Part shown: positions 3,518 to 59,081 of the stretch, in pieces
Layout of the letters: each line of letters begins with the position of its first letter
How positions within the stretch are numbered: the first letter of the stretch is position 1
Assembly (NCBI GenBank): GCA_041665065.1
Contig: JBAYJM010000001.1
Location: 23,116-87,115, forward strand
DNA: 64,000 bases
Origin: Candidatus Buchananbacteria bacterium
Lineage (GTDB): Bacteria; Patescibacteriota; Patescibacteriia; 2-01-FULL-39-33
Direction of reading: 5' to 3'
Notes under the pieces: model-generated
Database searches by the model: none
Seen by the model: the letters and a program-made list of their open reading frames with translations, nothing else
What the model was told of the DNA's origin: nothing
Made by a program: the position numbers and the translations under genes

Positions 3518-3928
3518 ATGAGCACAACCATAAAGAAAAACGATTTTTTTCAAAGCCAAACCGATCATAAAGATGCCGTAGAAGAATGGTATTCTGGTGA
3601 AGGTCAACTGCTTTGCGATGTTTACGAAAGCGGCGATTATTTAATAGTCAAATCTACAATTGCCGGAGTTGATCCTAAAGACATCGATATATCCGTTGCG
3701 CATGATGTTTTGACGATTCGAGGCGTTCGAAAAATGGATGAAGAAATTGAAGATGAAAAATTTTATGCCCGGGAGTGTTATTGGGGTTCGTTTAGCAGGT
3801 CAATAGTTTTGCCTCATGAAATAGATCAAAAAAAAGTTGCAGCAAGTTTAAAAAACGGCGTGCTAACAGTTAAGCTGCCAAAAAAATATAAATCAACATC
3901 GATTAAAATAAGACAGAGCAATGGATGA
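3518..3928 (+). CDS. Small heat shock protein, Hsp20/alpha-crystallin family
   Basis: 136 aa with the alpha-crystallin domain and C-terminal VLTVKLPKK-like motif. Own TTGTTT-17-TATTAT promoter upstream. Confidence 0.85.
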   Translation: MSTTIKKNDFFQSQTDHKDAVEEWYSGEGQLLCDVYESGDYLIVKSTIAGVDPKDIDISVAHDVLTIRGVRKMDEEIEDEKFYARECYWGSFSRSIVLPHEIDQKKVAASLKNGVLTVKLPKKYKSTSIKIRQSNG

Positions 3929-4157
3929 TCAAAAGATAAAATTTTTAACCGGAGTAATTGATAGGATTGAGGGCGAGAAGGCAGTCGTCAGGCTTGATGA
4001 CGGCCAGGAAATTGTTTGGCCAAAAGATAAATTAACATCGGACATAAAAGAGGGATCATCAGTTAAAATAATCGCGCTGGGCGACAATGAAATGGAAGCG
4101 CACAGAGAAGAAATCGCCAAAAACATTTTGAAGGAAATTTTTAAGACAGATGATTAA
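3921..4157 (+). CDS. DUF3006-like small protein
   Basis: 78 aa. VIDRIEGEKAVVRLDDGQEI...P resembles the DUF3006 beta-barrel family. Overlaps the Hsp20 stop. Confidence 0.5.
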   Translation: MDDQKIKFLTGVIDRIEGEKAVVRLDDGQEIVWPKDKLTSDIKEGSSVKIIALGDNEMEAHREEIAKNILKEIFKTDD

Positions 4158-6099
4158 TTTCAAAAAGCTCCTGGAGAAAAGCCGGGAAAACATGGGATCG
4201 GAAGAATCAGGCAGGCAGAAAAAATCCCAAAAATGGTGGCTATTACTAATTATTGTAGTCGCTTTTTTTATAGTTATTGCCTTGGCGATAATCGGCCTTA
4301 TTGTTTTTGAAATAAAATATAAGTACGAATTTTTTCCAGGAAGCAGGATTGGTAATATTTCGCTTGAAGGCCTAAATCGCGAACAGGCATTGGCCTTGAT
4401 AACACCGATGGCCGATAAAATTGAAAGAGACGGAATAGAAATAAGATATCAGAATGATTCGCATAATTTAAATCTGACAGGCACGATTGATTCATTGTCT
4501 GATCCTGACTTATCACGGGAAGTTTTATATTTTGATGAGTACAAAACTATTTATGAATCATTTAAAACGGGTCATGATGGGTCGTTATTTAAAAATATTG
4601 GAGACCAATGGTCGACGTTTTGGGGTGTTAAAAACTTCAAGGCGGATTTTGTCTTGGATGAAGACGCATTAAATAAAATTTTAAAAGCGCAATTTGGAAA
4701 AAATGATCAGTCGCCCAAAAATGCGACTCCGAAAATAACTTGGGCGGGGAATAGCTATAAAATAGAAATTGAAAATGAAAATCCCGGCAGTGAGATTGAT
4801 TATCAAAAGGCCATTGACGATTTAAAAAACAATTTTTTAGAAATTTCAGATAAGCCGATTTTGTTAACACAAAAAATTACTGAGCCGACAGTAACGGCAG
4901 ATGAAATAACCGGCAAAACCGGTGATATCGATTTTGTTTTAAATTCGTCTACGCCAAAATTTTCATACGCAGATAAAAATTGGCAAATGGATAAAAAAAA
5001 GTTATCACAAATGATCGAATTTCAGAAAGTTGATAACGAAATTAAATTGGGTTTAAATCACGATCTATTTATAAAGTGGTTTACTGATACTATTTCAGCT
5101 CAAATTAATGTCGAGCCCAAAAATGCGCAGATAGAAATCAAAGACGGACAAGCCACAAAAATTTCCACCCATCAGGAAGGATTGAAAGCTGATGCGGAAA
5201 AGGCCTACGCTGATGTTCAGGGCAGATTAATGACAGCACAGTGGCCGGTTGCCGTTGAAGTGGTAAAAATTGCTCCGGATGTGGCAACTGATAATATCAA
5301 TGACATGGGCATTAAAGAAATTATCGGCGTTGGCGAGTCTGATTTTAAAGGCAGTCCAAGCAACAGGATTCATAACATTAAAAATGGTGCTAGCAAAGTG
5401 CATGGAATTTTAATTAAGCCCGGCGAAGAATTCTCTTTGATAAATACTTTAGGAGAAGTTGAAAAATCAACAGGATATTTGCCAGAGCTGGTTATCAAGG
5501 GCAATAAGACAATGCCTGAATATGGCGGCGGGCTTTGCCAAGTCGGGACGACAATGTTTAGAGCGGCGATGGGATCGGGTCTGCCAATAACTGAAAGGCG
5601 CAATCATTCATATAATGTTACTTATTATTTGGAAAATGGTTTGCCGGGAGTTGATGCTACAATCTATATTCCTCATCCTGATGTTAGATTTATAAACAAT
5701 ACTGGAAATTATGTTTTAATTCAGACTAGGGTAGAAGGTACTAAATTAAAGTTTGAATTTTGGGGCACAAAGGATGGCAGACAGGCTACAAGGACAAAGC
5801 CCAAGGCTTGGGACTGGGTTTCACCTCCGCCTACAAAATATGTTGAAACAACAGAATTAAAGCCAGGACAAAAGAAATGCACGGAAAGCGCCCATAAAGG
5901 CGTTAAGGCTTCATTTGATTATATTGTCACTTCAACTGACGGAACAGTAAAAAGACAGAATTTTTATTCGGTATACAAGCCCTGGCAGGCAGTTTGTTTG
6001 ATTGGCGTTGACCCGAATAAGGCCGTTGCAACCAGTACCGAAGTAATAATCGGAACGCCTGAAAATCCCGTGACAACTACTACTAGTGTTAGTAATTAA
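4150..6099 (+). CDS. VanW family protein, membrane anchored
   Basis: 649 aa with an N-terminal TM helix. Carries the VanW core motif GYLPELVIKGNKTMPEYGGGLCQVGTTMFRAAM. Confidence 0.75.
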   Translation: MINFKKLLEKSRENMGSEESGRQKKSQKWWLLLIIVVAFFIVIALAIIGLIVFEIKYKYEFFPGSRIGNISLEGLNREQALALITPMADKIERDGIEIRYQNDSHNLNLTGTIDSLSDPDLSREVLYFDEYKTIYESFKTGHDGSLFKNIGDQWSTFWGVKNFKADFVLDEDALNKILKAQFGKNDQSPKNATPKITWAGNSYKIEIENENPGSEIDYQKAIDDLKNNFLEISDKPILLTQKITEPTVTADEITGKTGDIDFVLNSSTPKFSYADKNWQMDKKKLSQMIEFQKVDNEIKLGLNHDLFIKWFTDTISAQINVEPKNAQIEIKDGQATKISTHQEGLKADAEKAYADVQGRLMTAQWPVAVEVVKIAPDVATDNINDMGIKEIIGVGESDFKGSPSNRIHNIKNGASKVHGILIKPGEEFSLINTLGEVEKSTGYLPELVIKGNKTMPEYGGGLCQVGTTMFRAAMGSGLPITERRNHSYNVTYYLENGLPGVDATIYIPHPDVRFINNTGNYVLIQTRVEGTKLKFEFWGTKDGRQATRTKPKAWDWVSPPPTKYVETTELKPGQKKCTESAHKGVKASFDYIVTSTDGTVKRQNFYSVYKPWQAVCLIGVDPNKAVATSTEVIIGTPENPVTTTTSVSN

Positions 6100-6113
6100 T
6101 GGCCTTGACTTTT

Positions 6114-6143
6114 TGGCTATAATTGTTTATAATTTTAAAAGTT
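6114..6143 (+). promoter_or_regulatory. Promoter TTGACT-17-TATAAT
   Basis: Consensus-like -35/-10 pair with 17-nt spacer, upstream of a short hairpin-terminated segment and tRNA-Glu. Confidence 0.4.
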
Positions 6144-6185
6144 TAATCAGTGTTTAAGGCTGTCATCCTGGACTCCTTTATTGTC

Positions 6186-6222
6186 ATTCCGTACTTAATA
6201 ATACGGAATCTCGTCTTTTTTA
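6186..6222 (+). terminator. Hairpin ATTCCGTA-8nt-TACGGAAT followed by a T-run
   Basis: 8-bp perfect stem, then ctcgtcTTTTTT. With the promoter at 6114 it bounds a short transcript of about 80 nt just upstream of the tRNA. Confidence 0.4.
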
Positions 6223-6255
6223 TAAAATACTGATTACCAGTTACAATTTATATTT

Positions 6256-6327
6256 GCGGCCATCGTCTAACGGTTAGGACGCCAGGTTTTCATCCTGGTA
6301 ATCGGGGTTCGATTCCCCGTGGCCGTA
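6256..6327 (+). tRNA. tRNA-Glu (anticodon UUC)
   Basis: Cloverleaf: acceptor GCGGCCA/TGGCCGT, D-arm GTCTAACGGTTAGGAC, anticodon stem CCAGG/CCTGG with loop TTTTCAT (anticodon TTC), T-arm CGGGGTTCGATTCCCCG. CCA is not encoded. Confidence 0.85.
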
Positions 6328-6342
6328 CTACTATTTTCAAAA

Positions 6343-6380
6343 AGAAAAGCACCAATATTTTGGGTGTTTTTTCTTTGAGG
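6343..6380 (+). repeat. Terminator-like element; imperfect direct repeat of 8813-8850
   Basis: gaaaagcaccaatattttgggtgttttttctttgagggctaatga is about 80% identical to gaaaaaacacccatattcgggtgttttctttttgaggtgaatga at 8813-8850. Confidence 0.45.
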
Positions 6381-6455
6381 GCTAATGAGAATCGATCTAT
6401 AGCTTTTGACTTTTGAATTTCAATATCAGATAATTATAATAAATATTTATTAAAT

Positions 6456-7163: not shown

Positions 7164-7337
7164 TTTTCCAACAGTTGCGTTAATCCGTACTAGAAAAATA
7201 ACCCATGCTTAAGGGGCTATTTTTTTATTAACTAATAGGGAATCGAACTTACTAAAATAAAATAGTTCCAAGACGAATATATATAAGTCAGGGGGCAGTG
7301 AATCTCTATTTGCGGGGATACAGAAGCCAGCTTCTGA

Positions 7338-7370
7338 TTTAAAAAACCGTAACAATCCTTTGTTACGGTT
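7338..7370 (-). terminator. Intrinsic terminator AACCGTAACAA-tcct-TTGTTACGGTT
   Basis: 11-bp perfect stem directly after the stop of the minus-strand gene. A run of six U follows on the minus strand. Confidence 0.6.
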
Positions 7371-8671
7371 TAATCCTCCAGGGTGGGTAGTTCGATTCCA
7401 GCCAAAAGGTCCTCTATATCCTCGTGGTCCCTCCTCGCACTTCCACGAGATTTTCTGTCGTTGTCGTCAGCAGAGCGTGTAGCCAGTATTTTGTCGATTG
7501 CCGAGTCAAAGTTAAACTTGTCAATCTTAGTGGCGTCTATGCTGCGGAGTACCTCTAGGACATTGCGTTGCATGAACGCATCGGGCAAGCTCAGCGTATC
7601 CCATCCAAAGTAAAACCCATATCGGCGCACTGAGCTTATAAGTTGGGTGAAGCTGAGAGTATGGCCAAGGTCTTTGATGATAGCTTCGATAAGTGAGCGA
7701 AAGTCCTCAACCGATTGAGGAGGTCGCGATGGACCTTCATGCAGAGCCCTCCAAACTCCACGCCTCACTTTGCCGAACCGCCTATCATTTGGATGAGTTA
7801 GGTGACAGCATACGTCGTTTTTCAACCCTTCTTTGTTTTTGGTCTGGTCAACGACATATCCACTGCTTGGATCAATAATTGCATTGCAAAGTTCATCATA
7901 CGTCCAGCCAGCAATTATCCTTTGCGCTCTCATTATTGTGTAGAGAGCATCGCGTTGATGGGGGGTGTGTTTCGGCCTCTTATATTCGCTTCGTTTTTTT
8001 GTCACCTTTAGACGAAGCTTCTTGGGAGTTGGCAGTTCCGCGCCGCTTCTCAGTCCCCAACGAGTATTCCGTGTTGGAATGTGGCCAGTGGCGTCCGGTA
8101 CTTTAACAAATAGTTCTTCGTTCCTGGCAACAACATTCCAGACGTCAATTCGTAGCTGTTTCTCGTCGATTTCTGGTTCATTGAAACTCTGATGGTTGCG
8201 GACTCTCTCCATAATCTCTCCAAGAACCAGAGGCCCCTCTTGAAGAATGTCAAAAATGATCGCGCGAAGAGCAAATCTGCCAACCATAATATGCCTATCA
8301 ACCGGCTTCCTTTTCCTTTCCAGTGTTTTTTGGAGCATTGGATCGGCGGCCGTAAAACGGACGTACCAAAGCCCATGACGTTGTCGGAATATGTGGGTTC
8401 TGGAATTCAGCACCAGATCGTGCAGGAGTCTGACCAGTTTTTCGTGGCTTAATCCTGAGGGGATTTTCCTGTCCCGGCGCAAAGCCATGATAAGTTCTGT
8501 AATCGTCATGGCTTTTTGTGATAGCAAATGAATTACCGCCTTTGTTTTTGTGCCGAGATCCGGACGAAGTGAGTCTATGACTTGTTGAGCGGACAGTATG
8601 GTGCCAGGCGCAAGGCCCAATTTTCTCATGCCCCTCTCGGGGCCTGTTTTTTGACCCCTAGATTTGGACAT
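7370..8671 (-). CDS. Hypothetical basic protein with multiple winged-helix-like segments (GC-rich island)
   Basis: Long ORF at about 50% GC, against about 33% for its neighbours. Likely start MSKSRGQKTGPERG, with an aaaggaaaa ribosome-binding site upstream. Several HTH/winged-helix-like stretches (AVIHLLSQKAMTITELIMAL; RFALRAIIFDILQEGPLVLGEIMERV). No integrase motifs recognised. Confidence 0.5.
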   Translation of the reverse strand: MSKSRGQKTGPERGMRKLGLAPGTILSAQQVIDSLRPDLGTKTKAVIHLLSQKAMTITELIMALRRDRKIPSGLSHEKLVRLLHDLVLNSRTHIFRQRHGLWYVRFTAADPMLQKTLERKRKPVDRHIMVGRFALRAIIFDILQEGPLVLGEIMERVRNHQSFNEPEIDEKQLRIDVWNVVARNEELFVKVPDATGHIPTRNTRWGLRSGAELPTPKKLRLKVTKKRSEYKRPKHTPHQRDALYTIMRAQRIIAGWTYDELCNAIIDPSSGYVVDQTKNKEGLKNDVCCHLTHPNDRRFGKVRRGVWRALHEGPSRPPQSVEDFRSLIEAIIKDLGHTLSFTQLISSVRRYGFYFGWDTLSLPDAFMQRNVLEVLRSIDATKIDKFNFDSAIDKILATRSADDNDRKSRGSARRDHEDIEDLLAGIELPTLED

Positions 8672-8812
8672 GGCAATTTTCCTTTGTTGGTCGCTATTGG
8701 TTAAAGGTACTTTAAGCATTATATTATTATATTAGCATTAGTCAAAGGTTGCTGGTTGAGTTATTAAAAATAAGAGCAGGATTTTTGTTAATTACTACTA
8801 GTTTTTTAAGAA

Positions 8813-13117: not shown

Positions 13118-13843
13118 TTAGGCCGATTGCCTATCCATGATTTGAATCAGCGCGTGACCCTTGGGGTCAACGCGTTTGATGACAAGGATCTTGGGACCCG
13201 CAGGGAGAATATTCCAGTACGTTTCCGCGATCTCTCGGTGGTCGCCAATGACGGGTACGAGAAGCGGGCCTCGAAACGAGTGAGTCTGGCCGGTGTCCTT
13301 TGTGCTTGTCGTGACACAGTAGCCAAAGCCGGACTCCATGTTGGGATATTGTTCTTTGCGTCTGTGGCCGTCATCGGTCTCCGTAGTTACGGAAATACCG
13401 GCATGAGGGGCCTCACCATTAAAGAAGCAGTAAGCGCTTACGCGTGGCGCATCGACCAATCCAAATCTGCGTTGATTGGAGTCTGCCTCACCAAATGCGG
13501 CATCGACAAATGTCGCATCGATGGGCGTGCCTCCTTGAAGTTTGGCGTAGTATGCAGCCCTGAGATGGTCTATGACGCTTTCGGTTTGGCCATTCGTCAC
13601 CACGTGGGTGTGGTAGTAACCGGCCATGGCGAGATAAGAAACGGGGCAGGGAATTCCTGGATTAATGGGAACAACCCGCACACTTCCATCGCAATCGTCA
13701 ATGGCAAAGGTGCAATTTGAATCTCCCATAATCCAGGCGACTTGATACAATACTTCACGGAAGAACGCCACCACTATCCCGTTGCTGGGGCTTTCACAAA
13801 GTGAAACAAAATTGTCTTGGGCCTCAACTCTTTCGGCGCTCAT
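13118..13843 (-). CDS. Hypothetical protein, GC-rich island
   Basis: 241 aa. GGGGGAA Shine-Dalgarno site upstream of the ATG, and a minus-oriented terminator downstream. The overlapping plus-strand ORF 13085-13720 is rejected because it starts inside the terminator hairpin. No confident family; His/Asp-rich segments (GDSNC, YYHTHVV) could hint at a metal-dependent hydrolase. Confidence 0.45.
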   Translation of the reverse strand: MSAERVEAQDNFVSLCESPSNGIVVAFFREVLYQVAWIMGDSNCTFAIDDCDGSVRVVPINPGIPCPVSYLAMAGYYHTHVVTNGQTESVIDHLRAAYYAKLQGGTPIDATFVDAAFGEADSNQRRFGLVDAPRVSAYCFFNGEAPHAGISVTTETDDGHRRKEQYPNMESGFGYCVTTSTKDTGQTHSFRGPLLVPVIGDHREIAETYWNILPAGPKILVIKRVDPKGHALIQIMDRQSA

Positions 13844-25981: not shown

Positions 25982-26668
25982 CTAGAACAGGGAGAGGACG
26001 AAAGACCAGGTGGCGTAAGCCCCGATACTAGCCAGAAGCATCAGGGAGGCCACAATAAGGAGTGGTCGACCGTAGTAAATCTGAACTTCCTCATAATACC
26101 GACCATCTTGCTGATTCTTAGTTTTGGGCTCGATGTCCAATTCTTCGTATGCTGCTAGACAGCCCTCTTTCGTCTTCTCGTTAATTAAAGCGTCCTGGCG
26201 CTTCTTTAATTCGCTTAGGGTTTTGGGGTTTGGTCGACTTTGAGTTCTTCTCTCTTCTCGTAAGAGGGTCAGTTTCCATGTGTTGCTGCTCCATGGACAC
26301 GCTCTCTCCAGCAAAAGCAAATACGCCGCTTGGTTTGCTTGGTTGTCCAGTTTGCGTAGAGCGAAATAGATGCTCTCTTGAGATTGTTTTTTCCTCGAGT
26401 ATGTCTTTAGTCCCCGTAAATCAAACAGGGGGACCATCTGAACGGAGGTTTCTCCCACCGCGGCGAGAAGGTTTCCGTCTCCGTCGAGAATTAAAATTCG
26501 GCGAGAGTACTCAAACTCCCCACTGGCAAGGTCATTGTATAGGCCCAGATCATTAACATCAAAGGGTCGTACATGGCACTCAACGACCTGGTCCTGCGGC
26601 ATGTGACGTTTGAGAAATGGGCGCTCCCGGTACAGGGCATCAACTTTGCCGGCATCAATGCAATTCAT
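25982..26668 (-). CDS. Hypothetical tail-anchored protein, GC-rich island
   Basis: 228 aa with a single C-terminal TM helix. AGGAGGC Shine-Dalgarno site. About 52% GC. Confidence 0.5.
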   Translation of the reverse strand: MNCIDAGKVDALYRERPFLKRHMPQDQVVECHVRPFDVNDLGLYNDLASGEFEYSRRILILDGDGNLLAAVGETSVQMVPLFDLRGLKTYSRKKQSQESIYFALRKLDNQANQAAYLLLLERACPWSSNTWKLTLLREERRTQSRPNPKTLSELKKRQDALINEKTKEGCLAAYEELDIEPKTKNQQDGRYYEEVQIYYGRPLLIVASLMLLASIGAYATWSFVLSLF

Positions 26669-36709: not shown

Positions 36710-36991
36710 ACAAGTAATTAGCCTCTGAGAGCCTCAGAAGCCCCGCTTTTTAGTTATTAAGTTTGGACTTTTTGTCCGTTTGTTGCGGGTTTTTAATTGA
36801 GATTAGTATAGTATATTTTGGAATTAAAGTCAATGGATAATTATTTTTAAAATTAAAAATATGTGCAAATTGGGCTGTGGATAAGTCTCTGGCTAATTTT
36901 AGTAGTTTTATTGTACAATATAAATGTGAAGCTCACACGAGCTTACATGTTCCTACCATGGTAGAAGTCTGACAAGAAGGAGACTCTCAGC

Positions 36992-37429
36992 ATGCGGAAA
37001 TGGTTCGTGGTACCCATTATTCTCTTGGCCGTCTTGGCCGCGATTCCTCTGGCTGTGGCTCTGACGAGCCCGACGGTGGCCGTTCAGGAAGCCGAGAGCG
37101 TACAGATGCCGGCGACGCCGACGATGATGGCTGCGCAAGACCTGAAGACGCCCGCGATCGAAGACACGGGCCAGACGTTCGTTGAGCAGCAGCCTGCGCT
37201 CACCAACGAATACGCCGCCACCGTGCATGTCGTCTACGACACGAGTCCGGCGCCGGCGCTTATCTCCCTGGCAAGCGAGCAGAAGCTCACCTCCGCGGAC
37301 GGCGTAATCGACGCAGAAGACACCCCCTCGGTCACCGTGGCTTACGGCGACACCGGGCCGGCTGTTGCTTTCGCGATCGACGCTCAGAAGATGTCGGCGA
37401 AGACGGCGACCCAGGCAATCCTCACGTAA
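36992..37429 (+). CDS. Small secreted protein, GC-rich island (about 60% GC)
   Basis: 145 aa. N-terminal signal peptide MRKWFVVPIILLAVLAAIPLAVA, Ala/Thr/Pro-rich mature part. AAGGAG Shine-Dalgarno site. The overlapping minus-strand ORF 36953-37597 is rejected as an artefact of the high GC. Confidence 0.55.
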   Translation: MRKWFVVPIILLAVLAAIPLAVALTSPTVAVQEAESVQMPATPTMMAAQDLKTPAIEDTGQTFVEQQPALTNEYAATVHVVYDTSPAPALISLASEQKLTSADGVIDAEDTPSVTVAYGDTGPAVAFAIDAQKMSAKTATQAILT

Positions 37430-37479
37430 GAGGACATGGGTCGGGAAGACTTTGGGTCTGAAAAGACCTTTAGCGGTGC

Positions 37480-37528
37480 GGAACTGGCAAGAAATACGAA
37501 ACACGCCAGTTCCCCCGCTTATTTTATT
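37480..37528 (+). terminator. Intrinsic terminator GGAACTGGC-loop-GCCAGTTCC + T-rich tail
   Basis: 9-bp stem with a 16-nt loop, followed by cccgcttattttatttg. A smaller GGTCT-gaaa-AGACC hairpin lies just upstream. Confidence 0.5.
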
Positions 37529-37562
37529 TGCTTTAAAATCATAAAATGCTAGTATATTAAAT

Positions 37563-37883
37563 ATGAAAAGATTCACCAAAAAGAAAGAGGATTTCATCTG
37601 TCAAAATTGCGGGCAGGAAGTCAAAGGCGATGGCTATACAAATCATTGCCCTCATTGTCTTTGGTCAAAACACGTTGATGTTAATCCCGGCGACCGCCTT
37701 GAGGAATGTGGCGGAATGATGAGGCCTATTGATGTTTACAAACAGAAACAAGACTGGATACTAACTCATCGCTGTGAAATCTGTGGGGCAATAAAACGGA
37801 ATAAAATTGATGAAAACGATGATTTCGACAAGGTGATAAAATTGGTCAAAGAGATTAGCGATAAAAAAACAAAAAAATCATAA
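37563..37883 (+). CDS. RNHCP domain protein (zinc ribbon)
   Basis: 106 aa. CQNCG...GYTNHCPHCLWSKHVD...CEICG matches the RNHCP motif. Confidence 0.65.
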   Translation: MKRFTKKKEDFICQNCGQEVKGDGYTNHCPHCLWSKHVDVNPGDRLEECGGMMRPIDVYKQKQDWILTHRCEICGAIKRNKIDENDDFDKVIKLVKEISDKKTKKS

Positions 37884-43001: not shown

Positions 43002-43913
43002 ATGCCCAGGGAGAAGAAAATTTGCCTATTGTTTTTCGGCGATTATTGTTCCCAAGACCAAATGAGCGTTTGGTTGGAAAATATTCCAGAGCTGAAGGTT
43101 TTAAATAAAATTGAGCCAATCTTTGTTTTTGGTAAAAACACCGTTGAAGTTATGGTCGGTGATTGGTTGAGGTTGGCAAAAATAATTTCTGATTCAGCTG
43201 AAAAATACGACGGCTTTGTTGTACTTCACAACATAGAAAATTTGCTTTTTTCTTCCGCGGCTATTTCCTTTCTCTTGCCTAATTTTGCAAAACCAATAGT
43301 TTTTACGGGCGGCTTAAGTCCAAAGGCTAAAGATTCAGGCATAAAATCCAATATAATAAATGCATGCCAATTAGCGGGTCATCCTTTGGCTGAAGTCTGC
43401 CTTCTTTTTGGCAATAAAATTTTGCGCGCTAACCAGGCTTCAAGAAATTATTCTTCGTCTCTTAATTTATTTCAGGCATCATCTAGCGGTTCATTGGGAC
43501 AAATAGATTTCAGTATAAGAATTTTCAATCAAACCAAAAGGGATATAGAAAACAAAGTGAAAATGGTCTCAGATTTGGAAGAAAATATTTTAATAGTAGA
43601 GGCTACACCAATATTGTCGATTGCTTCTCTTAAGGATGCTATTAAAAATAAAAAGGGCTTATTAGTTAAGGCCGATGTTAATAAAATTTCTTCAATAGTT
43701 ATAAGTGCATTAGAGGAAATATCTAAAAAAATGCCAGTTGTGATTTTCGGCAAACAGCAAACAGACCAATTGCCCGACGGATTTATTGTGGTTTCTAATA
43801 TGACTCTAGAGGCCAGTATTATTAAGTTGATGTGGTCATTAAAACAAGTAGCCGCACCCACAAAAATAAAAGACTTAATGCATAAGAATGTGGCAGGAGA
43901 AATAATTATATGA
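43002..43913 (+). CDS. Hypothetical protein
   Basis: 303 aa. Start at ATG 43002 after AGGGAG. No confident family. Confidence 0.4.
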   Translation: MPREKKICLLFFGDYCSQDQMSVWLENIPELKVLNKIEPIFVFGKNTVEVMVGDWLRLAKIISDSAEKYDGFVVLHNIENLLFSSAAISFLLPNFAKPIVFTGGLSPKAKDSGIKSNIINACQLAGHPLAEVCLLFGNKILRANQASRNYSSSLNLFQASSSGSLGQIDFSIRIFNQTKRDIENKVKMVSDLEENILIVEATPILSIASLKDAIKNKKGLLVKADVNKISSIVISALEEISKKMPVVIFGKQQTDQLPDGFIVVSNMTLEASIIKLMWSLKQVAAPTKIKDLMHKNVAGEIII

Positions 43914-44509
43914 AAATCTATTTTTCCGTTGCCCAAAATACAGAAAAGAATACTGATTTAGCAGAGCAGGTTGTTAGGATTTTAAATCAGGCCGGTATAT
44001 TAGTTCTGAGTAATTATAAGCAGGAGGATATTTTTGAATTTGCAGAGCAGGATTTAGAAAGAGTGGAGAATTCCGGTGAATCTATTTTGAAAAAGATAGA
44101 TGCCATAATAATTGACAGTAATTCGTCCACGGAAGAAAGCGGTTATTTAATAGCTCTAGCCTTAACCCATAAAAAACCGATTTTATATCTTGCAGAGAAA
44201 GGAAATGTTTTGGACAGGCATCTGTCGGGATTGCTGAAAAACAAGGATGTGGCTAAAATACTAAAGGTTGCATTTTATTATGATCAGAATTTAGAAAAAG
44301 TGATTTTGAAATTCATCACGGAAATTGAAACTGGCTATGGTATTGAAAATCCAAATATCAAATTCACTTTAAGAATTACTTCCAGAATTGAGCGTTATTT
44401 ATATTGGAAAACTCATAATACAAAGACATCCAAGGCCGATTACTTACGTGATATCCTAGAAAAAATGATCGCTGAAGATGAGGAGTATAAAAAATATTTG
44501 AAGGAATAA
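43910..44509 (+). CDS. Hypothetical protein, possible nucleoside 2-deoxyribosyltransferase-like Rossmann domain
   Basis: 199 aa. KIYFSVA...AGILVL...AIIIDSNSSTEESGYLIALALTHKKPILYL has the flavour of the NDT/DUF4062-type fold. Low confidence. Confidence 0.35.
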   Translation: MKIYFSVAQNTEKNTDLAEQVVRILNQAGILVLSNYKQEDIFEFAEQDLERVENSGESILKKIDAIIIDSNSSTEESGYLIALALTHKKPILYLAEKGNVLDRHLSGLLKNKDVAKILKVAFYYDQNLEKVILKFITEIETGYGIENPNIKFTLRITSRIERYLYWKTHNTKTSKADYLRDILEKMIAEDEEYKKYLKE

Positions 44510-44732: not shown

Positions 44733-44957
44733 ATGGATAGGGAAATAAAAATTGGAGATTGCATCAGAATTGAATTGGATGGGCAGATTATGGAATTGAA
44801 TATTATTGATGTTTTGCAGAAAGACATGGCATACAATGCCATTACTGCATCTTCGCCATTAGCTCAAGTGGTTTTAGGAATGCAGCGCGGTGAAACGGTA
44901 GAATTCAAATCACCAAGTGGATTAAAATGTTGTCGTATATTAGAAATTATTTCTTAA
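44733..44957 (+). CDS. GreA/GreB C-terminal (FKBP-like) domain protein
   Basis: 74 aa. SPLAQVVLGMQRGETVEF resembles the GreA C-terminal domain signature. Confidence 0.45.
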   Translation: MDREIKIGDCIRIELDGQIMELNIIDVLQKDMAYNAITASSPLAQVVLGMQRGETVEFKSPSGLKCCRILEIIS

Positions 44958-45115: not shown

Positions 45116-46471
45116 ATGATAGCATCCATCACGAGGCCACTTAATGCTCAACTTGAAATCACTGACAAATGCAATCTTCGGTGCCGTCACTGTTACCATC
45201 TTGACTCCGATTGTGAAAGACATAGTCAAGACCTATCCGATGATCAGGTGATGGAGCTGGTCGAGAAGCTTATAGCTTCTAAAGTGTTCTCGGTTGTTGT
45301 GACTGGTGGCGAGCCGCTCGTACGCAAAGGACTAACCAAGAAGATTATCCGTCGTCTTAAACAAGAAGACATCGATACCTCCCTTAATACAAACCTGTTA
45401 CTTCTAGACAGGGTAAGTCTTGAGGATCTCCTGGCCTGTAAGCTCGACGGTATGCTTGTCTCTTGCACAACGTCCGATTCCGAACTTTACGACCTTATGA
45501 CTCGGGGTGGTAATTATCACCAATTCGAGACAAAGGTTAAAATGCTAGTCACATTGGGACAGCACTTCGCCGTAAATATGGTCGTCAACCGCCATAACAT
45601 CGGGCATATCCGAAAAACAGCAACACGAATGCGAGATATCGGCGTTAAGGTATTTGGCGCAACGCCGATGGGTCTTAACGCCACCAATCCCGACCTTGAG
45701 AACCTTCTTGAAGTAGACCAGGTCAAGTTGCTTGTTGAAGATCTTATCTGGGCACAGGAGCATCTTAACCTCAAAACCGACATATTTGAAGCATTGCCAA
45801 AGTGCGTCTTCCCGGCATGGGTTCGATCAAGGGACTATGCCTTTCTCAACCGCAAGTGCCAGGCTGGCAAAACTATTGCGTCCATTGCCAATAATGGTGA
45901 CGTCCGAGCTTGTTCCCATAATCCCGATGTCTATGGCAACTTGTTTAACGAGTCGATCGAAAGCATCTGGTCGAAAATGGGAGCATGGCGTGATCAGCGC
46001 ACCGCGCCTGGTCGCTGTCTCGGCTGCAAGCTTGTTGGCAGCTGTTACGGAGGATGTAGGATTACCGCCCGCACGTTCACTGGAGATCATCAAGGCGAAG
46101 ATCCGTGGATGGACAAACCACTCTCCGTCAATGATATGCCCCAACGAAAAGTCAATGGTTTGTCCCTTGGACTGGACACAACACTAACTTTCGCCGACAA
46201 ATTACATTGGCGTCAAGAAACCGAAGAAGACTACCTTATGTCGTCAACCCGGGGCAACCGGAATATTACAATGGTTAACAGACCACTTCTGGAATTTGCC
46301 CAGGAATTAAGACGCCTATCGCCAATATCACTAGAGCATCTTGCCAGGGTTGCCGGTTGCAATCCTGGTGATGCCGAGTTTCAAAGAGTCCTTACGTTGC
46401 TTGTAACTAGGGGGTTTGTATACCCACAACAACCAGGAAGAAAGGAGGAACGCTATGTCTCGACCATTTAA
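45116..46471 (+). CDS. Radical SAM enzyme with C-terminal SPASM/twitch auxiliary cluster domain (RiPP maturase-like)
   Basis: 451 aa at about 50% GC. CNLRCRHC = CxxxCxxC at the N-terminus. C-terminal Cys clusters CQAGKT...ACSHN and GRCLGCKLVGSCYGGCRI. GGAAGGAAAA Shine-Dalgarno site. Confidence 0.85.
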   Translation: MIASITRPLNAQLEITDKCNLRCRHCYHLDSDCERHSQDLSDDQVMELVEKLIASKVFSVVVTGGEPLVRKGLTKKIIRRLKQEDIDTSLNTNLLLLDRVSLEDLLACKLDGMLVSCTTSDSELYDLMTRGGNYHQFETKVKMLVTLGQHFAVNMVVNRHNIGHIRKTATRMRDIGVKVFGATPMGLNATNPDLENLLEVDQVKLLVEDLIWAQEHLNLKTDIFEALPKCVFPAWVRSRDYAFLNRKCQAGKTIASIANNGDVRACSHNPDVYGNLFNESIESIWSKMGAWRDQRTAPGRCLGCKLVGSCYGGCRITARTFTGDHQGEDPWMDKPLSVNDMPQRKVNGLSLGLDTTLTFADKLHWRQETEEDYLMSSTRGNRNITMVNRPLLEFAQELRRLSPISLEHLARVAGCNPGDAEFQRVLTLLVTRGFVYPQQPGRKEERYVSTI

Positions 46472-46595
46472 TTTCGCCGCAATGCAAGTTAAGCCGGTAA
46501 ACACCGTCGACAACTGCTTTGACTGCGACTGTGGCGATGGCGGTGGCGATGGCGGCTGCGTCTCGTGCGACAGTTGCGATTGCGACAGCGAATAG
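46455..46595 (+). CDS. Cys/Asp-rich precursor peptide (46 aa) overlapping the 3' end of the rSAM gene
   Basis: Not in the ORF track because it is shorter than 60 aa. AGGAGG sits 6 nt upstream of the ATG. Translation is MSRPFNFAAMQVKPVNTVDNCFDCDCGDGGGDGGCVSCDSCDCDSE: seven Cys, mostly as CD or CxD pairs. Followed by the terminator GGACCTA-loop-TAGGTCC + T-run at 46619-46652. Confidence 0.6.
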   Translation: MSRPFNFAAMQVKPVNTVDNCFDCDCGDGGGDGGCVSCDSCDCDSE

Positions 46596-46618
46596 TTTCG
46601 AATTTTACCCCTCTTTGC

Positions 46619-46652
46619 GGACCTATCCTTGCGGTAGGTCCATTATTTTTAT
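46619..46652 (+). terminator. Intrinsic terminator GGACCTA-tccttgcgg-TAGGTCC + ATTATTTTTAT
   Basis: 7-bp perfect stem directly after the precursor peptide ORF. Confidence 0.55.
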
Positions 46653-46663
46653 AAAATATTAAT

Positions 46664-47317
46664 ATGTCTCTTAATTTTGAATACAACCTCAAAAAAGACG
46701 CCGAGAATCATCGGGCCATAGCTCACGCTAAATATATTGGCAAACCATCAAAAGTGATTGAATATTTTCAAGTAAAATTTGGGGGTGATTTCAGTGATGA
46801 TAAACTCAAACGATTTATAAAAGGACTTATTGATTATAATAAAATTGATATTGATCAAAAAGTCTTAGATTTTAAATCAACTTGGCAACAGGTAGAATTA
46901 GAATTTGAATTACGAATGAAAAACCTATTTGGTGATATTTTATCATTAGATATGTTTACCGCATATATTACAACAAATGATCGCTGTACGTATTCAACTA
47001 GAGATAATAGTTTTTTTCTTACTGTATTTAGTAAGCAACCAAGACTTGTCATTAGTCACGAACTATTTCATCTCTTTACTTGCCAAATCTTTAGCAAAGA
47101 ACTTAATGCAATGCCACAAAAGGCTGCCTATGACACAAAAGAATCACTCACCGAATTACTTAACTTTACATGCAAAGATATAATAGGAGCTCCAGATCTT
47201 GGATATGACCAACATAGAGAGTTGCGTAAGTTAATTTGTGAACTATGGCCAAAGAACAACAATCTAAAAAAAATATTTAATAAAGTTGCTAATGCAGCAC
47301 AATCTAAACACAACTAA
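46664..47317 (+). CDS. Putative zinc metallopeptidase (HExxH motif), unknown family
   Basis: 217 aa, AT-rich (native-like). ISHELFHLF contains HELFH. Confidence 0.5.
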   Translation: MSLNFEYNLKKDAENHRAIAHAKYIGKPSKVIEYFQVKFGGDFSDDKLKRFIKGLIDYNKIDIDQKVLDFKSTWQQVELEFELRMKNLFGDILSLDMFTAYITTNDRCTYSTRDNSFFLTVFSKQPRLVISHELFHLFTCQIFSKELNAMPQKAAYDTKESLTELLNFTCKDIIGAPDLGYDQHRELRKLICELWPKNNNLKKIFNKVANAAQSKHN

Positions 47318-47393: not shown

Positions 47394-48005
47394 ATGGATT
47401 ACAACAACAGCTATAAAAAACATCATCAATTGTGGGGCAATATGCCAAACAATTTAATAACAATGTTTGAAGGTGAGTTTGAACAAAATTGTAACTGTCT
47501 TGATTTAGGCTCCGGCCAAGGTCGTGATTCACTATATCTCGCTGGGAAGAATTTTAAAGTAACATCGGTTGACTCATCTGGGGTTGGAGTTGATCAATTA
47601 AAAGGTAAATCCATTGAACAGGGGCTTGTCTCAAATTTAGAATTAATATGTGAAGACGTATTGTCATTTAATATTCCCACACAAAAATTTAAAGTTATAA
47701 ATGCGATTAATTTGCTACAATTTTTACCCCGCCAACAAAGCTTATTGCTTATAGATAATATAAGAAAATCCATCGCTAACTCTGGCTTTATTATAATTAA
47801 GGCTTTTACCGTTAATGACTCCTCTTTTATTAAAAAGAGAGATAATAAAAATATGACATTCTTTTACCCCGATGAACTTAAAGGAATATTTAATGATTTT
47901 AAGATTAGACATTATTTTGAATATATTACCCTAGATCAGGGGCATGGGGACACTCCTGAGCCACATTTGCATGGAATAGTTGAAATTGTGGCACAAAAAA
48001 TTTGA
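47394..48005 (+). CDS. TehB-like SAM-dependent methyltransferase
   Basis: 203 aa. Motif I CLDLGSGQGRDSLYLA resembles tellurite-resistance methyltransferase TehB. Confidence 0.65.
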   Translation: MDYNNSYKKHHQLWGNMPNNLITMFEGEFEQNCNCLDLGSGQGRDSLYLAGKNFKVTSVDSSGVGVDQLKGKSIEQGLVSNLELICEDVLSFNIPTQKFKVINAINLLQFLPRQQSLLLIDNIRKSIANSGFIIIKAFTVNDSSFIKKRDNKNMTFFYPDELKGIFNDFKIRHYFEYITLDQGHGDTPEPHLHGIVEIVAQKI

Positions 48006-48236: not shown

Positions 48237-48920
48237 ATGGCTGCAATTATTATTCTTTTAGTTCTCGCTTCGTTATTTAATCTTGCTTTGACGTTTATTG
48301 TTTGGCGCAGGAATTATAAAAGTCCAATGAATATTTTTTATTCCTTGGCAAATCTTGGTGTTTTTTTCTGGGTTATTTGTCAGGTTGGCATATTTATGCC
48401 AGTCAATGCTGAAATGTTATATTTTTCCTGGATTGCAAGTTATATCTCCGGAGCTTTTATTGCAGTCAACGTGGCGATCTTTAGTTTTTATTTCCCTTTC
48501 GCTAAAAATATAAACAAAAAGATAATTTTTATTATTTATTTATTGTTTTTTGTCTTGTTATTTTTATTATTTATCCCAGGATTTATTGTTAACCCAATGA
48601 CGTCAGTAACTGGTTATTCGTCGTCATTAGAATTAAAGGCTTCTTTATGGGGGTCTGTTATTTATGGTGTTTATTTTGTAATCATGTTTTATATATTTTT
48701 TAATAATTTTATAAAAAAATATATCAATATAGATGGATTTGCTAAGTCGCAAATTAAATTAATTTTAATTGGTGTTTCCGCAATCTTGCTTATGGGTCTT
48801 ATAACAAATGTAATAGCACCTATTTATATCGGGTCAAATATCGGTTGGATTGGGCCATTATCTTCTGTTATTATGGCTTTTTTTGCCCTTCATCTTTTAT
48901 ACTTTAAGCAGGATAAATAG
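48237..48920 (+). CDS. Stand-alone 7TM membrane domain protein (histidine-kinase N-terminal 7TM-like)
   Basis: 227 aa, seven hydrophobic helices. Resembles the N-terminal membrane domain of the sensor kinase at 51035. Confidence 0.5.
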   Translation: MAAIIILLVLASLFNLALTFIVWRRNYKSPMNIFYSLANLGVFFWVICQVGIFMPVNAEMLYFSWIASYISGAFIAVNVAIFSFYFPFAKNINKKIIFIIYLLFFVLLFLLFIPGFIVNPMTSVTGYSSSLELKASLWGSVIYGVYFVIMFYIFFNNFIKKYINIDGFAKSQIKLILIGVSAILLMGLITNVIAPIYIGSNIGWIGPLSSVIMAFFALHLLYFKQDK

Positions 48921-57216: not shown

Positions 57217-57816
57217 TTAGAGTTCGAGAACCCAATAACTTCTTTGATGCTCGTTTGCATCAATAACATCGAGTTCTACAAACCCCAACCCTTTGTAAAG
57301 GGCGCGAGCCGGTTCTGCTCGGAGGTCGGTTCGCAGAAGAATGGTCTCGTGGCCGGTTTTGATGGCCCATTCCAAAAGGCATTCGCTTAGTTCTCGACCA
57401 GCTCCTTTGAGTCGGCAGTTGGAATCAACACCGAGTTCATCAATGTAAAACACTTCGCCATTTTCGAAAAATCGATCCATCTGCGAAGTTCCCGAGATGT
57501 TTTGCATGTCTTCCATGCTGACACGATAGCCCCAAGTGAAGCCGATGATGGCGTCGTTTGACTTGGGATCGGTTGGAAGTGCAAGGAATCCTCGGGATTG
57601 TCCGCGCGCGAGCTCTTCTTTGAGCTCTTGCAATACAATTTCAGTCGTCCAGAAATCCTCATTCCACGGCGGTTCTCTCCAGATTTCGCAATAGAGCGAG
57701 GCGCACCCTTCCAAGACGGAAAGAGGCGTTTGATCCAGGCTTATCACCTCGATTCGATATCCTTTTTGCATGTCACGATTCCTTATTGTTACATGCTTGG
57801 TGTTTGGGTTTTTCAT
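57217..57816 (-). CDS. GNAT family N-acetyltransferase, GC-rich island
   Basis: 199 aa at about 52% GC. Acetyl-CoA motif A IDELGVDSNCRLKGAGRELSECLLEWA. Confidence 0.65.
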   Translation of the reverse strand: MKNPNTKHVTIRNRDMQKGYRIEVISLDQTPLSVLEGCASLYCEIWREPPWNEDFWTTEIVLQELKEELARGQSRGFLALPTDPKSNDAIIGFTWGYRVSMEDMQNISGTSQMDRFFENGEVFYIDELGVDSNCRLKGAGRELSECLLEWAIKTGHETILLRTDLRAEPARALYKGLGFVELDVIDANEHQRSYWVLEL

Positions 57817-57821
57817 ATAAA

Positions 57822-57852
57822 AAACCCCTTCCCACTCGGGAAGGGGTTGAGT
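57822..57852 (-). terminator. Intrinsic terminator CCCCTTCCC-gagt-GGGAAGGGG + U-run (minus strand)
   Basis: 9-bp GC stem. On the minus strand it follows the trpR-like gene and is followed by TTTTTTAT. Confidence 0.55.
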
Positions 57853-57868
57853 TTATATTTTAAAAATA

Positions 57869-58189
57869 TCAACGCAGCTCTTTCCCGATTGAGGAAGAGC
57901 TATAATGATTTATTCTTTTTGAAATTAAATTATATCCGCCGGTTCCGTTATTTAACCAAAGCGCGACACGGCTGACAGTAGTTGTGCTGACTTTTAATTT
58001 TTCGGCAATCTCACGATAGGGCATTTTCTTCTCCAAAAGCTTCACTATTTCCCAGCGCTCGCTCATTTCCTTGATTTCTTCAACCGTACAGAGGTCACGA
58101 AAAAATAACTCGCATTCTTTTGTGGTTTTTAATGATAGGATGGCTTCAAAAAGCCTGTTAGTTTGTTTGTTAAATTTAAATTGTTTCAT
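57869..58189 (-). CDS. TrpR-like DNA-binding protein (YerC/YecD family)
   Basis: 106 aa. LCTVEEIKEMSERWEIVKLL...YREIAEKLKVSTTTVSRVALWLNNGTGGY matches the YerC/YecD Trp-repressor-like family. Confidence 0.65.
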   Translation of the reverse strand: MKQFKFNKQTNRLFEAILSLKTTKECELFFRDLCTVEEIKEMSERWEIVKLLEKKMPYREIAEKLKVSTTTVSRVALWLNNGTGGYNLISKRINHYSSSSIGKELR

Positions 58190-58382
58190 ATCTGTATCAC
58201 TGTATTACTATACTAACACAGAATAAATACAATGTCAAGAATATAATTTATTAATTAAAAAAACCGCCTAAAGGCGGGTAATGTGTGTTTGTTATTTTAT
58301 TACTCTCAAAAGCAACAATAGGATTATTACTTTAATTGAGTGGAGAAGGCAAGGGTAGGACTTGTATCTTCTCCGATTTGAA

Positions 58383-58856
58383 CTAAATACCGATGACCTC
58401 CTTGGCTTTGAGCAAGTCGATCATTCTGCGAACTTCTTGCGTGTTGGGCATGCAACCGTAACCATCATGCAGGTTAAAAGCGGCTTCAGCCTCACTCGCA
58501 CGTCCAGCTTTCGCGAAGAGAAACGCTGAAGTGAGGTACAGCTTTTTATGGAACATTTCCTTGGCCATCTCGATGATAGCGTCTGTCTCGACAGGACTGT
58601 CGATTGTTTCCCGGAGTTTGACGTACATCCAGTACCCGAGCAGATCGGCCAACTTATCACATTCCTCAGAAAGCCACGGTCTGCAGTCGGGGGCATTTAA
58701 GTAGAACCAGGCTATGAATTTGGAAACTCCCTGAGCGTCTTTGCGGTCTGCCATATACCGCAAGAGGGATTCGGGGTGACCTGGGTTCTTGGTGAGGCAG
58801 TCATCCCACCGACCAAAGCTCACCAACACATACATGGGCAACCAGCTCATATTCAT
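58383..58856 (-). CDS. Hypothetical protein, GC-rich island
   Basis: Likely start MNMSWLPMYV with a GAGGGA Shine-Dalgarno site. Terminator (aaaccgcctaaaggcggg) at 58255-58285 on the minus strand. No family recognised. Confidence 0.45.
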   Translation of the reverse strand: MNMSWLPMYVLVSFGRWDDCLTKNPGHPESLLRYMADRKDAQGVSKFIAWFYLNAPDCRPWLSEECDKLADLLGYWMYVKLRETIDSPVETDAIIEMAKEMFHKKLYLTSAFLFAKAGRASEAEAAFNLHDGYGCMPNTQEVRRMIDLLKAKEVIGI

Positions 58857-59081
58857 ATTTTTTCCCTCGTAAGGCCAGGCCAAGATTTATTACTTTCATC
58901 CTCAAACTCACAAGAGCCCAGGATTTTTAATGCTTTATGGTACAAATTCTTTGTGAACGTTACTCACATTGAATACATTATTATATCATAGTTAAATCAT
59001 TTTGTCAAATATATTTGCTAAGTTTATTTAAAATAAAATAAAAAAACCGCCCCAGCAAGGGGCGGAAAATTTGATATGAAT

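Follow-up and report, generated by a model that had tools for sequence, protein, structure and literature searches.

In a 64,000-nucleotide stretch of contig JBAYJM010000001.1, from a Candidatus Buchananbacteria metagenome-assembled genome (positions 23,116 to 87,115 of the forward strand; hereafter, the window), a 46-residue peptide rich in Cys and Asp is genetically tied to a radical S-adenosylmethionine (SAM) enzyme with a SPASM region and, in Patescibacteria, also to a protein of zincin-like fold that carries an HExxH motif. We consider it very likely that the locus is a radical-SAM-modified peptide system, and the product of the cassette is almost certainly a modified peptide whose family has not been described before. 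With somewhat less assurance, we favor its interpretation as a three-gene cassette that matures a ribosomal peptide, one of an uncharacterised family known from Patescibacteria, from Bacteroidales of the rumen and from a small number of further anaerobes. The features that mark a cassette for a peptide made on the ribosome and modified after translation (RiPP) are found together here: the enzyme and peptide genes are adjacent, the leader motif is conserved, the Cys/Asp core is hypervariable, and a protein joining the two is known.

The pairing of a radical SAM/SPASM enzyme with a Cys-rich peptide is already known as a kind, and the present family has no curated model; what distinguishes it is a precursor core of which half is Cys and Asp, an enzyme that has a domain of its own at the C-terminus where others have a recognition element at the N-terminus, and the HExxH partner in Patescibacteria. 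Surveys have reported few or no biosynthetic clusters from Patescibacteria (PMC11613949, PMC8692599, PMC12153355), a mining paper on Bacteroidales RiPPs deals with other clusters (PMC10352776), and our literature search (Patescibacteria or candidate phyla radiation [CPR] combined with radical SAM, RiPP or ranthipeptide, and the peptide motifs as text) returned no description of this family. An initial annotation of the window, made from its letters and reading frames, held that RiPP biosynthesis would be unusual in a CPR genome; such clusters are indeed rare in CPR surveys, but the present family recurs across several CPR lineages. It is among the few peptide-modification systems that recur across tiny-genome lineages of the radiation, which implies a function worth the cost of retention. 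Because rumen Bacteroidales have it too, as does a bacterium in culture, Pelotalea chapellei DSM 13688 (locus L010; NZ_JAHDYS010000014.1, 90588–97913), the system is open to experiment.

A Cys/Asp-Rich Precursor Is Conserved across Homologous Loci

The 46-codon open reading frame (ORF) to which the initial annotation drew attention, unlisted among the predicted genes, in another frame than the enzyme and preceded by AGGAGG, is present as described, as is the terminator behind it (table 1). Residues 1–20 (46455–46514) form a leader carrying FNFAAMQV, and residues 21–46 (46515–46592) form a core with seven Cys, eight Asp/Glu, six Gly and no Lys or Arg, in which residues other than Cys, Asp, Gly and Ser are few. 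The seven Cys, which had been described as nearly all next to Asp, comprise four in CD units, two in CxD units and one without Asp.

We took homologous loci from genomes and metagenomes and scanned them in six frames for short Cys/Asp-rich ORFs. At E ≤ 1e-10 there are 261 homologues of the enzyme, and the loci whose enzyme has the family's C-terminal domain amount to 29 distinct ones, from Patescibacteria, rumen Bacteroidales and P. chapellei. The RiPP-like pairing of a radical SAM/SPASM enzyme with a Cys/Asp-rich precursor had been proposed together with a test fixed beforehand, the conservation of the small ORF in homologous loci, and the proposal held: 28 of the 29 loci encode one or more short ORFs whose tail is rich in Cys and Asp, adjoining the enzyme gene in all but one. 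Most often the peptide gene comes immediately downstream of that for the enzyme, but in L010, L011 and L015 it is upstream; it usually occurs as two tandem copies at the rumen Bacteroidales loci, and at L087 stands ~3 kb away from the enzyme, beside the HExxH gene.

These peptides have a common leader motif, [FY]-D-F-x-x-[ML] (alignment A6), which in the form F-[DN]-F-x-x-M-x-[VI] accommodates the window peptide, and ~10 residues later the core begins with N-C-[FY]-x-C-D. Over the cores of 23 peptides Asp and Cys account for 26% each, Gly for 13% and Ser for 12%, with two Lys/Arg summed over all cores; of 157 Cys, 105 have Asp as the next residue, the main Cys spacings are CxC (45) and CxxC (50), and the residue after the first core Cys is nearly always aromatic (Tyr/Phe). 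Strong conservation within the core is confined to Cys and Asp, the core being otherwise hypervariable. The closest cores, those of the window, L094 and L096, have the block CVSCDSCDCDS in common, and the codons for this block differ between the window and L094 at 6 of 11 positions and between the window and L096 at 5 of 11, every change being synonymous. A database protein of 494 residues (P0032) consists of a family enzyme with a precursor-like tail, ...SDFAAMQVLPLSVVDNCFCDCDSGGCDCDTCNCDSCDAGT, and is either a true enzyme–precursor fusion or an assembly frameshift.

By these comparisons the 46-residue product is a conserved, translated precursor made up of leader and core. That GC-rich DNA has left this small frame open by chance, the enzyme's substrate being encoded at a distance, can be regarded as excluded on the comparative evidence: short ORFs are common and two more frames are open over the same DNA (46519–46662 on the plus strand, 46489–46692 on the minus strand), but the peptide is kept in frame at 28 of 29 loci whose genomic GC runs from 26% to 41%, changes in the conserved block are all synonymous, the ORF has its own ribosome-binding site, and an enzyme–peptide fusion is known.

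The precursor is routinely missed or misframed by gene callers. The exact window peptide is not present among 15 billion predicted proteins and was never called by annotators; at L001 an antisense ORF of 70 residues (4306–4518, minus strand) was called in its place, and the 70-residue N-terminal extension of protein P0122 is the peptide gene translated out of frame. Since gene callers miss the precursor, cluster-mining surveys of CPR genomes may undercount such systems.

Several observations accompany this comparison. The rumen Bacteroidales loci (L005, L008, L009, L012, L013, L016, L017, L019, L095 and L100) usually encode tandem precursors with differing cores, one type ending ...CDHGW, ...CDSNW or ...CDSDW, while CN/NC units mark the other, which is longer; at L005 there is a single precursor, and upstream of it are a small helix-turn-helix-like gene and another gene for a radical SAM protein. 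The cassette is split at L087, where the peptide (3824–3946) and the HExxH gene (4001–4648) are followed by an IS1595-type transposase gene (5583–6422, minus strand) and then by the family enzyme (~7206–8528); positions 44–1261 hold a further radical SAM/SPASM gene, unrelated to the first. Distant radical SAM relatives (28–31% identity) at L020, L021, L024, L103, L104 and L107 are followed by Cys-rich peptides with another leader, ...GIVSL[LI][DE]..., and make up a sister family; a divergent HExxH-like gene is found also in L020, L024 and L103. Locus L006 (CAYNCE010000091.1; 26% GC) comes from a metagenome-assembled genome labelled Gammaproteobacteria, and the same peptide has been deposited from a Patescibacteria metagenome-assembled genome (MBU4360693.1); the former label is probably a binning or labelling error.

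Table 1. Features of the Cassette and of the Adjoining Gene, in Window Coordinates.
Feature	Coordinates	Strand	Basis and remarks
Likely ribosome-binding site of the radical SAM gene, purine-rich GGAAGGAAA	45101..45109	+	Sequence; 7 nt to ATG 45116; presumed function
Radical SAM/SPASM peptide maturase gene	45116..46471	+	451 aa; NCBI MFA6421848.1, "radical SAM protein", Candidatus Buchananbacteria
CxxxCxxC motif CNLRCRHC (C19, C23, C26), binding of the SAM-cleaving [4Fe-4S] cluster	45170..45193	+	Sequence and alignments
SPASM auxiliary-cluster region, C248-x12-G261-x4-C266 and C301-x2-C304-x5-C310-x3-C314	45857..46057	+	Motif and Pfam
Family-specific C-terminal domain (residues 356–438), winged-helix-like	46181..46429	+	AlphaFold2 model, block pLDDT 86–95; proposed recognition-element-like leader-binding module
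Ribosome-binding site of the peptide gene, AGGAGG	46443..46448	+	Sequence; 6 nt before ATG 46455
Precursor peptide gene, product MSRPFNFAAMQVKPVNTVDNCFDCDCGDGGGDGGCVSCDSCDCDSE	46455..46595	+	46 aa; ORF and homologous peptides; shares 17 nt with the enzyme gene, read in a different frame
Intrinsic-terminator-like hairpin	46619..46651	+	9-bp stem (46619–46641; 5 G-C pairs) and T run, directly 3' of the peptide gene
HExxH protein gene, zincin-like fold, third gene of the cassette	46664..47317	+	217 aa; deposited as hypothetical protein; proposed leader peptidase or Fe/alpha-ketoglutarate tailoring enzyme
HExxH site H132-E133-x-x-H136, and E160	47057–47071 and 47141–47143 (in 46664..47317)	+	Sequence
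TehB-like SAM-dependent methyltransferase gene	47394..48005	+	Pfam TehB and Methyltransf_25

The Enzyme Is a Radical SAM/SPASM Protein with a Private C-Terminal Domain

The 451-residue protein had been read as a radical SAM enzyme with SPASM-type Cys, an assignment that Pfam bears out: it passes the cutoffs of Radical_SAM (PF04055; 77.5 bits against 29.5) and SPASM (PF13186; 26.1 bits against 21.5, covering residues 248–304), and also matches Fer4_12. Its partial TIM barrel is modelled at high confidence by AlphaFold2. The three Cys of the CxxxCxxC motif are invariant in an alignment of 26 sequences and at least 90% conserved in one of 120 homologues, in which the six SPASM-region Cys are invariant together with C230 and C117; the last of these is found where a barrel strand ends and is part of no cluster motif. 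Enzymes of the SPASM subfamily have a C-terminal extension in which the seven-Cys motif CX9-15GX4C ... CX2CX5CX3C ... C holds two auxiliary clusters. The last canonical Cys of that motif is not conserved among the family enzymes in the 26-sequence alignment, which leaves the ligation of the second auxiliary cluster uncertain. The best structural matches are to the peptide-modifying SPASM enzymes SuiB, CteB, ChlB, SkfB and PqqE, and also to the anaerobic sulfatase maturase anSME. The JGI call of the window enzyme (P0001) has 406 residues and is without the CxxxCxxC motif.

Beyond the SPASM region lies a domain that is conserved throughout the enzyme family, modelled as four strands (356–359, 364–367, 372–376 and 385–388), three helices (389–401, 406–413 and 420–431) and a final strand. 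A profile of this domain run against 1.84 billion proteins found only 78 cluster representatives, nearly all of which carry the domain at the C-terminus of proteins of ~435–450 residues or are fragments; against the PDB the profile returned weak repeat matches to protein A only. The RiPP recognition element (RRE), a PqqD-like winged helix-turn-helix of a three-stranded sheet and three helices, binds leader peptides. From the modelled topology we infer that the C-terminal domain may bind the leader in an RRE-like manner.

Gene Order Enzyme–Peptide–HExxH in Patescibacteria

The initial annotation described a two-gene cassette beside a native HExxH gene. We find instead that the order enzyme–peptide–HExxH recurs at at least nine distinct Patescibacteria-type loci, even where the enzymes are only 28–31% identical; on this gene order the HExxH gene is a conserved third gene of the cassette in Patescibacteria. 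The HExxH motif and E160 are invariant in the family alignment, and the structural matches of the protein are the catalytic domains of M1 aminopeptidase and thermolysin (gluzincins), at 6–14% identity. It differs from zincin and gluzincin metallopeptidases in being only 217 residues long, standing alone and lacking a sequence-level family match: searches of Pfam, NCBIfam and the PDB with the protein sequence and with profiles returned nothing relevant. One candidate identity, GrpB, was rejected when its strong PDB match was traced to fusion partners in the alignment. The 12-bp hairpin of L004 is placed 3' of the peptide gene much as in the window, and none was detected in that position in L001.

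The TehB-like methyltransferase that had been noted downstream is confirmed by Pfam (table 1). In protein P0223 an HExxH-family protein is fused to a methyltransferase homologous to this window gene (E 1e-12), which suggests that the HExxH protein and the methyltransferase form a functional pair. The methyltransferase is not a conserved part of the cassette, being missing after the HExxH gene in L001 and L004.

Relation to Known Radical SAM Peptide Systems

Ranthipeptides are defined by a thioether that joins the sulfur of Cys to a second residue at a carbon other than the alpha carbon, and SCIFF peptides are named for six Cys in forty-five residues. The initial annotation placed the cassette among ranthipeptide, SCIFF or freyrasin-type systems, a membership that the searches do not support. 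The enzyme scores 60.4 bits against a cutoff of 340 with the PapB-family maturase model (NF047865), and 67.3 against 850 and 68.1 against 625 with the sactipeptide maturase models AlbA (NF012164) and StsB (NF045574); no SCIFF maturase model is among its 25 best NCBIfam matches, all of which are at or below 95 bits. A second test fixed beforehand was whether the enzyme clusters with non-RiPP families such as the anaerobic sulfatase maturases; with the model of the latter (TIGR03942) it scores 52.4 bits against 349, and a dedicated peptide is encoded at 28 of 29 loci, so that this test did not refute the proposal either. For the window peptide and five relatives neither Pfam nor NCBIfam returned a family; at E ≤ 10 five family peptides gave nothing in NCBIfam beyond a weak match of one Bacteroidales peptide to FibroRumin.

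PapB makes Cys–Asp thioethers and tolerates Cys-Xn-Asp with n = 0–6, a range that spans the CD and CxD units of the present cores (PMC9413430), and QhpD makes Cys–Asp/Glu thioethers (PMC10114670). The likeness to PapB/PapA (freyrasin) and QhpD/QhpC lies in a radical SAM/SPASM enzyme acting on or beside a Cys/Asp peptide with repeated Cys...Asp units. The present systems differ from these in that the repeat is CD/CxC/CxxC rather than CX3D, the PapB model score is below its cutoff, and the enzyme has a family-specific, putative leader-binding domain at its C-terminus and an HExxH partner; they are also known from genes alone. From SCIFF with CteB/Tte1186-type maturases they are set apart by the lack of a SCIFF model match, by a core half of which is Cys plus Asp, by another leader motif and by their taxa (Patescibacteria and Bacteroidales, whereas SCIFF belongs to Clostridia). 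FibroRumin (TIGR04135), a predicted family of which no mention was found in the literature searched, likewise consists of short Cys-rich peptides of rumen bacteria beside a radical SAM maturase; the match of the one Bacteroidales-type peptide is weak (E 0.038; 14 bits, where the cutoff is 45), there is none for the other peptides, that of the window included, and the enzyme is below the cutoff of every related model. Judged from these comparisons, the cassette appears to work like ranthipeptide/SCIFF systems yet carries none of the testable marks of membership in them, and we would class it as a variant, so far uncharacterised, within the Cys-rich peptides that radical SAM enzymes modify, set apart by a precursor family and a recognition-like domain of its own and, in CPR, by an HExxH partner.

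Proposed Maturation and Competing Chemistries

We hypothesize that the winged-helix-like C-terminal domain of the enzyme binds the leader, that the radical SAM cluster generates a 5'-deoxyadenosyl radical which would abstract a hydrogen from a core residue, and that the SPASM auxiliary clusters would hold a Cys thiolate and accept an electron. Repetition of this reaction would introduce several intramolecular Cys-derived crosslinks, the likeliest of which would be thioethers to neighboring Asp, as made by PapB- and QhpD-type enzymes; Asp is the likely partner because Cys–Asp is the repeating unit of the core. The HExxH protein would then tailor the core or remove the leader, and the product would be a compact, strongly anionic peptide rich in thiols or thioethers. 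Since no curated enzyme family was matched, Cys–Asp thioether chemistry is plausible by analogy, and we put its likelihood a little short of even.

Several points weigh against a three-gene maturation cassette. Modification of the peptide is a prediction from the genes alone, and the enzyme falls below the cutoff of every curated family, including PapB, AlbA, StsB and anSME. Pfam searches of the C-terminal domain in 32 members gave scattered chance matches only, and hhalign comparison of the domain with PqqD, using an approximate query, gave a probability of 0.2%; with no sequence match to PqqD or RRE, assignment of the domain as an RRE is one of topology. The HExxH gene is separated from the peptide gene by the terminator hairpin and is not found in the Bacteroidales versions. 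Its family is widespread where there is no radical SAM gene at all, notably in Patescibacteria, and some of its members are fusions with GrpB (PF04229) or with a methyltransferase (noted with P0223, L086, L088 and L089); being common outside radical SAM loci, it may have a role broader than leader removal.

The same cassette could carry out another chemistry, such as formation of sactionines (alpha-carbon thioethers), Tyr/Phe crosslinks, epimerisation or Cys oxidation. The enzyme's structural matches are equally good to SuiB (a C–C bond), CteB (a thioether), anSME (Cys oxidation), SkfB and PqqE; the extra invariant C117 and the near-constant aromatic residue after the first core Cys would also fit such a reaction, and no curated thioether-synthase model was matched. 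Cores built on repeated Cys–Asp are, however, the substrate pattern of known Cys–Asp thioether enzymes (PMC9413430), and we consider these other chemistries, taken together, unlikely though the strongest of the competing views of the product.

Another view concerns the HExxH protein, which would be no peptidase but an Fe(II)/alpha-ketoglutarate oxygenase, beta-hydroxylating core Asp/Asn or oxidatively cleaving the backbone, like ChlH, PflC/PosC and BpmH. It has no sequence match to these enzymes or to the alpha-ketoglutarate HExxH beta-hydroxylase domain family (IPR026337), its likeness to them is weaker than to hydrolytic zincins, and the hosts of the cassette are probably anaerobic. We hold an oxygenase to be rather improbable.

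The product might instead act chiefly by binding metal, as a ribosomal analogue of metallothionein or phytochelatin or as a metallophore with a role in metal homeostasis or acquisition and not in antibiosis or signalling, the radical SAM step serving only to rigidify or activate it. The predominance of CxC and CxxC spacing, cores in which Cys and Asp each account for about a quarter of residues, and the near absence of basic residues speak for this view, as does the existence of copper-chelating Cys-containing RiPPs (bufferins; PMC12452194). No exporter, immunity or regulator genes are encoded in the cassette; the lack of a nearby exporter suggests that the product may act inside the cell or bind metal, and the resemblance of the core to metallothionein and phytochelatin makes either role plausible. 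Thiolate ligands would be lost, however, if thioethers consumed all Cys, and no metal-handling genes are consistently adjacent. As the chief function, metal binding seems to us improbable; it is compatible with a three-gene maturation cassette and does not exclude it.

More speculatively still, and with a likelihood we rate below that of any view discussed so far in this section, the family may constitute a new RiPP class in which adjacent or nearly adjacent Cys and Asp (n = 0–2) are stitched into a dense ladder of tiny thioether rings, or in which a "phytochelatin-like" sequence becomes a rigid polyanionic metal cage, with the HExxH protein as an unconventional tailoring enzyme and not a protease. 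Such a product could serve ultra-small Patescibacteria in capturing metal from, or interacting with, a host cell.

Base Composition, Neighboring Genes, and Origin of the Cassette

The initial annotation also described the cassette as GC-rich (about 50%) in a backbone of roughly 33% and probably acquired by horizontal transfer. The step itself is real, the enzyme gene having a GC content of 0.48 and the peptide gene 0.55 against 0.31–0.35 in neighboring genes, but the window as a whole stands at 0.37 rather than 0.33. At third codon positions (GC3) the values are 0.489 for the enzyme and 0.64 for the peptide against 0.23–0.33 in adjacent genes, and since homologous genes are AT-rich in the very AT-rich hosts L006 and L024, the window copy seems out of equilibrium with its genome. 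These values would suit a recent import of the enzyme–peptide pair into a low-GC genome. As decisive proof of transfer, however, the step was rejected: the enzyme's GC3 has a z of only 1.46 against the window gene mean, six other ORFs are higher, and in L001, L004, L020 and L087, too, GC3 is higher in the enzyme–peptide pair than in the HExxH gene.

The relationships of the enzyme and its neighbors likewise run against an import. The enzyme groups with its closest homologues, which are labelled Patescibacteria and Komeilibacteria, away from the large Bacteroidales cluster. The asparaginase-like gene, the gene for a 199-residue protein of no known family and the seven-transmembrane (7TM) gene that flank it in the window (43002–44509 and 48237–48920) are found also at the Komeilibacteria locus L004 (298–2525), at 24–37% identity and in different orientation. 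The cassette flanks hold chance-level repeats only and no integrase, and the window has a single tRNA, at a distance of 39 kb. With the GC step recurring in other lineages and this synteny with Komeilibacteria, a recent import from outside the CPR, and with it the claim of horizontal acquisition, is not supported; we regard import as doubtful, and replacement of the window copy by one from another CPR lineage, which may have occurred, is the most that the data permit.

Two minor features of the window complete this description. Just upstream of the cassette, a 74-residue ORF (44733–44957) matches only the C-terminal domain of GreA/GreB and is a stand-alone or truncated transcript-cleavage-factor domain. 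More GC-rich islands (GC 0.48–0.56) occur at 1459–1929, 7370–8719, 13118–13843, 25982–26668, 36953–37597 and 57217–58883, and the genome is compositionally mosaic; the long ORFs in these islands have no Pfam match except a GNAT acetyltransferase (57217–57816), and some of them may be spurious.

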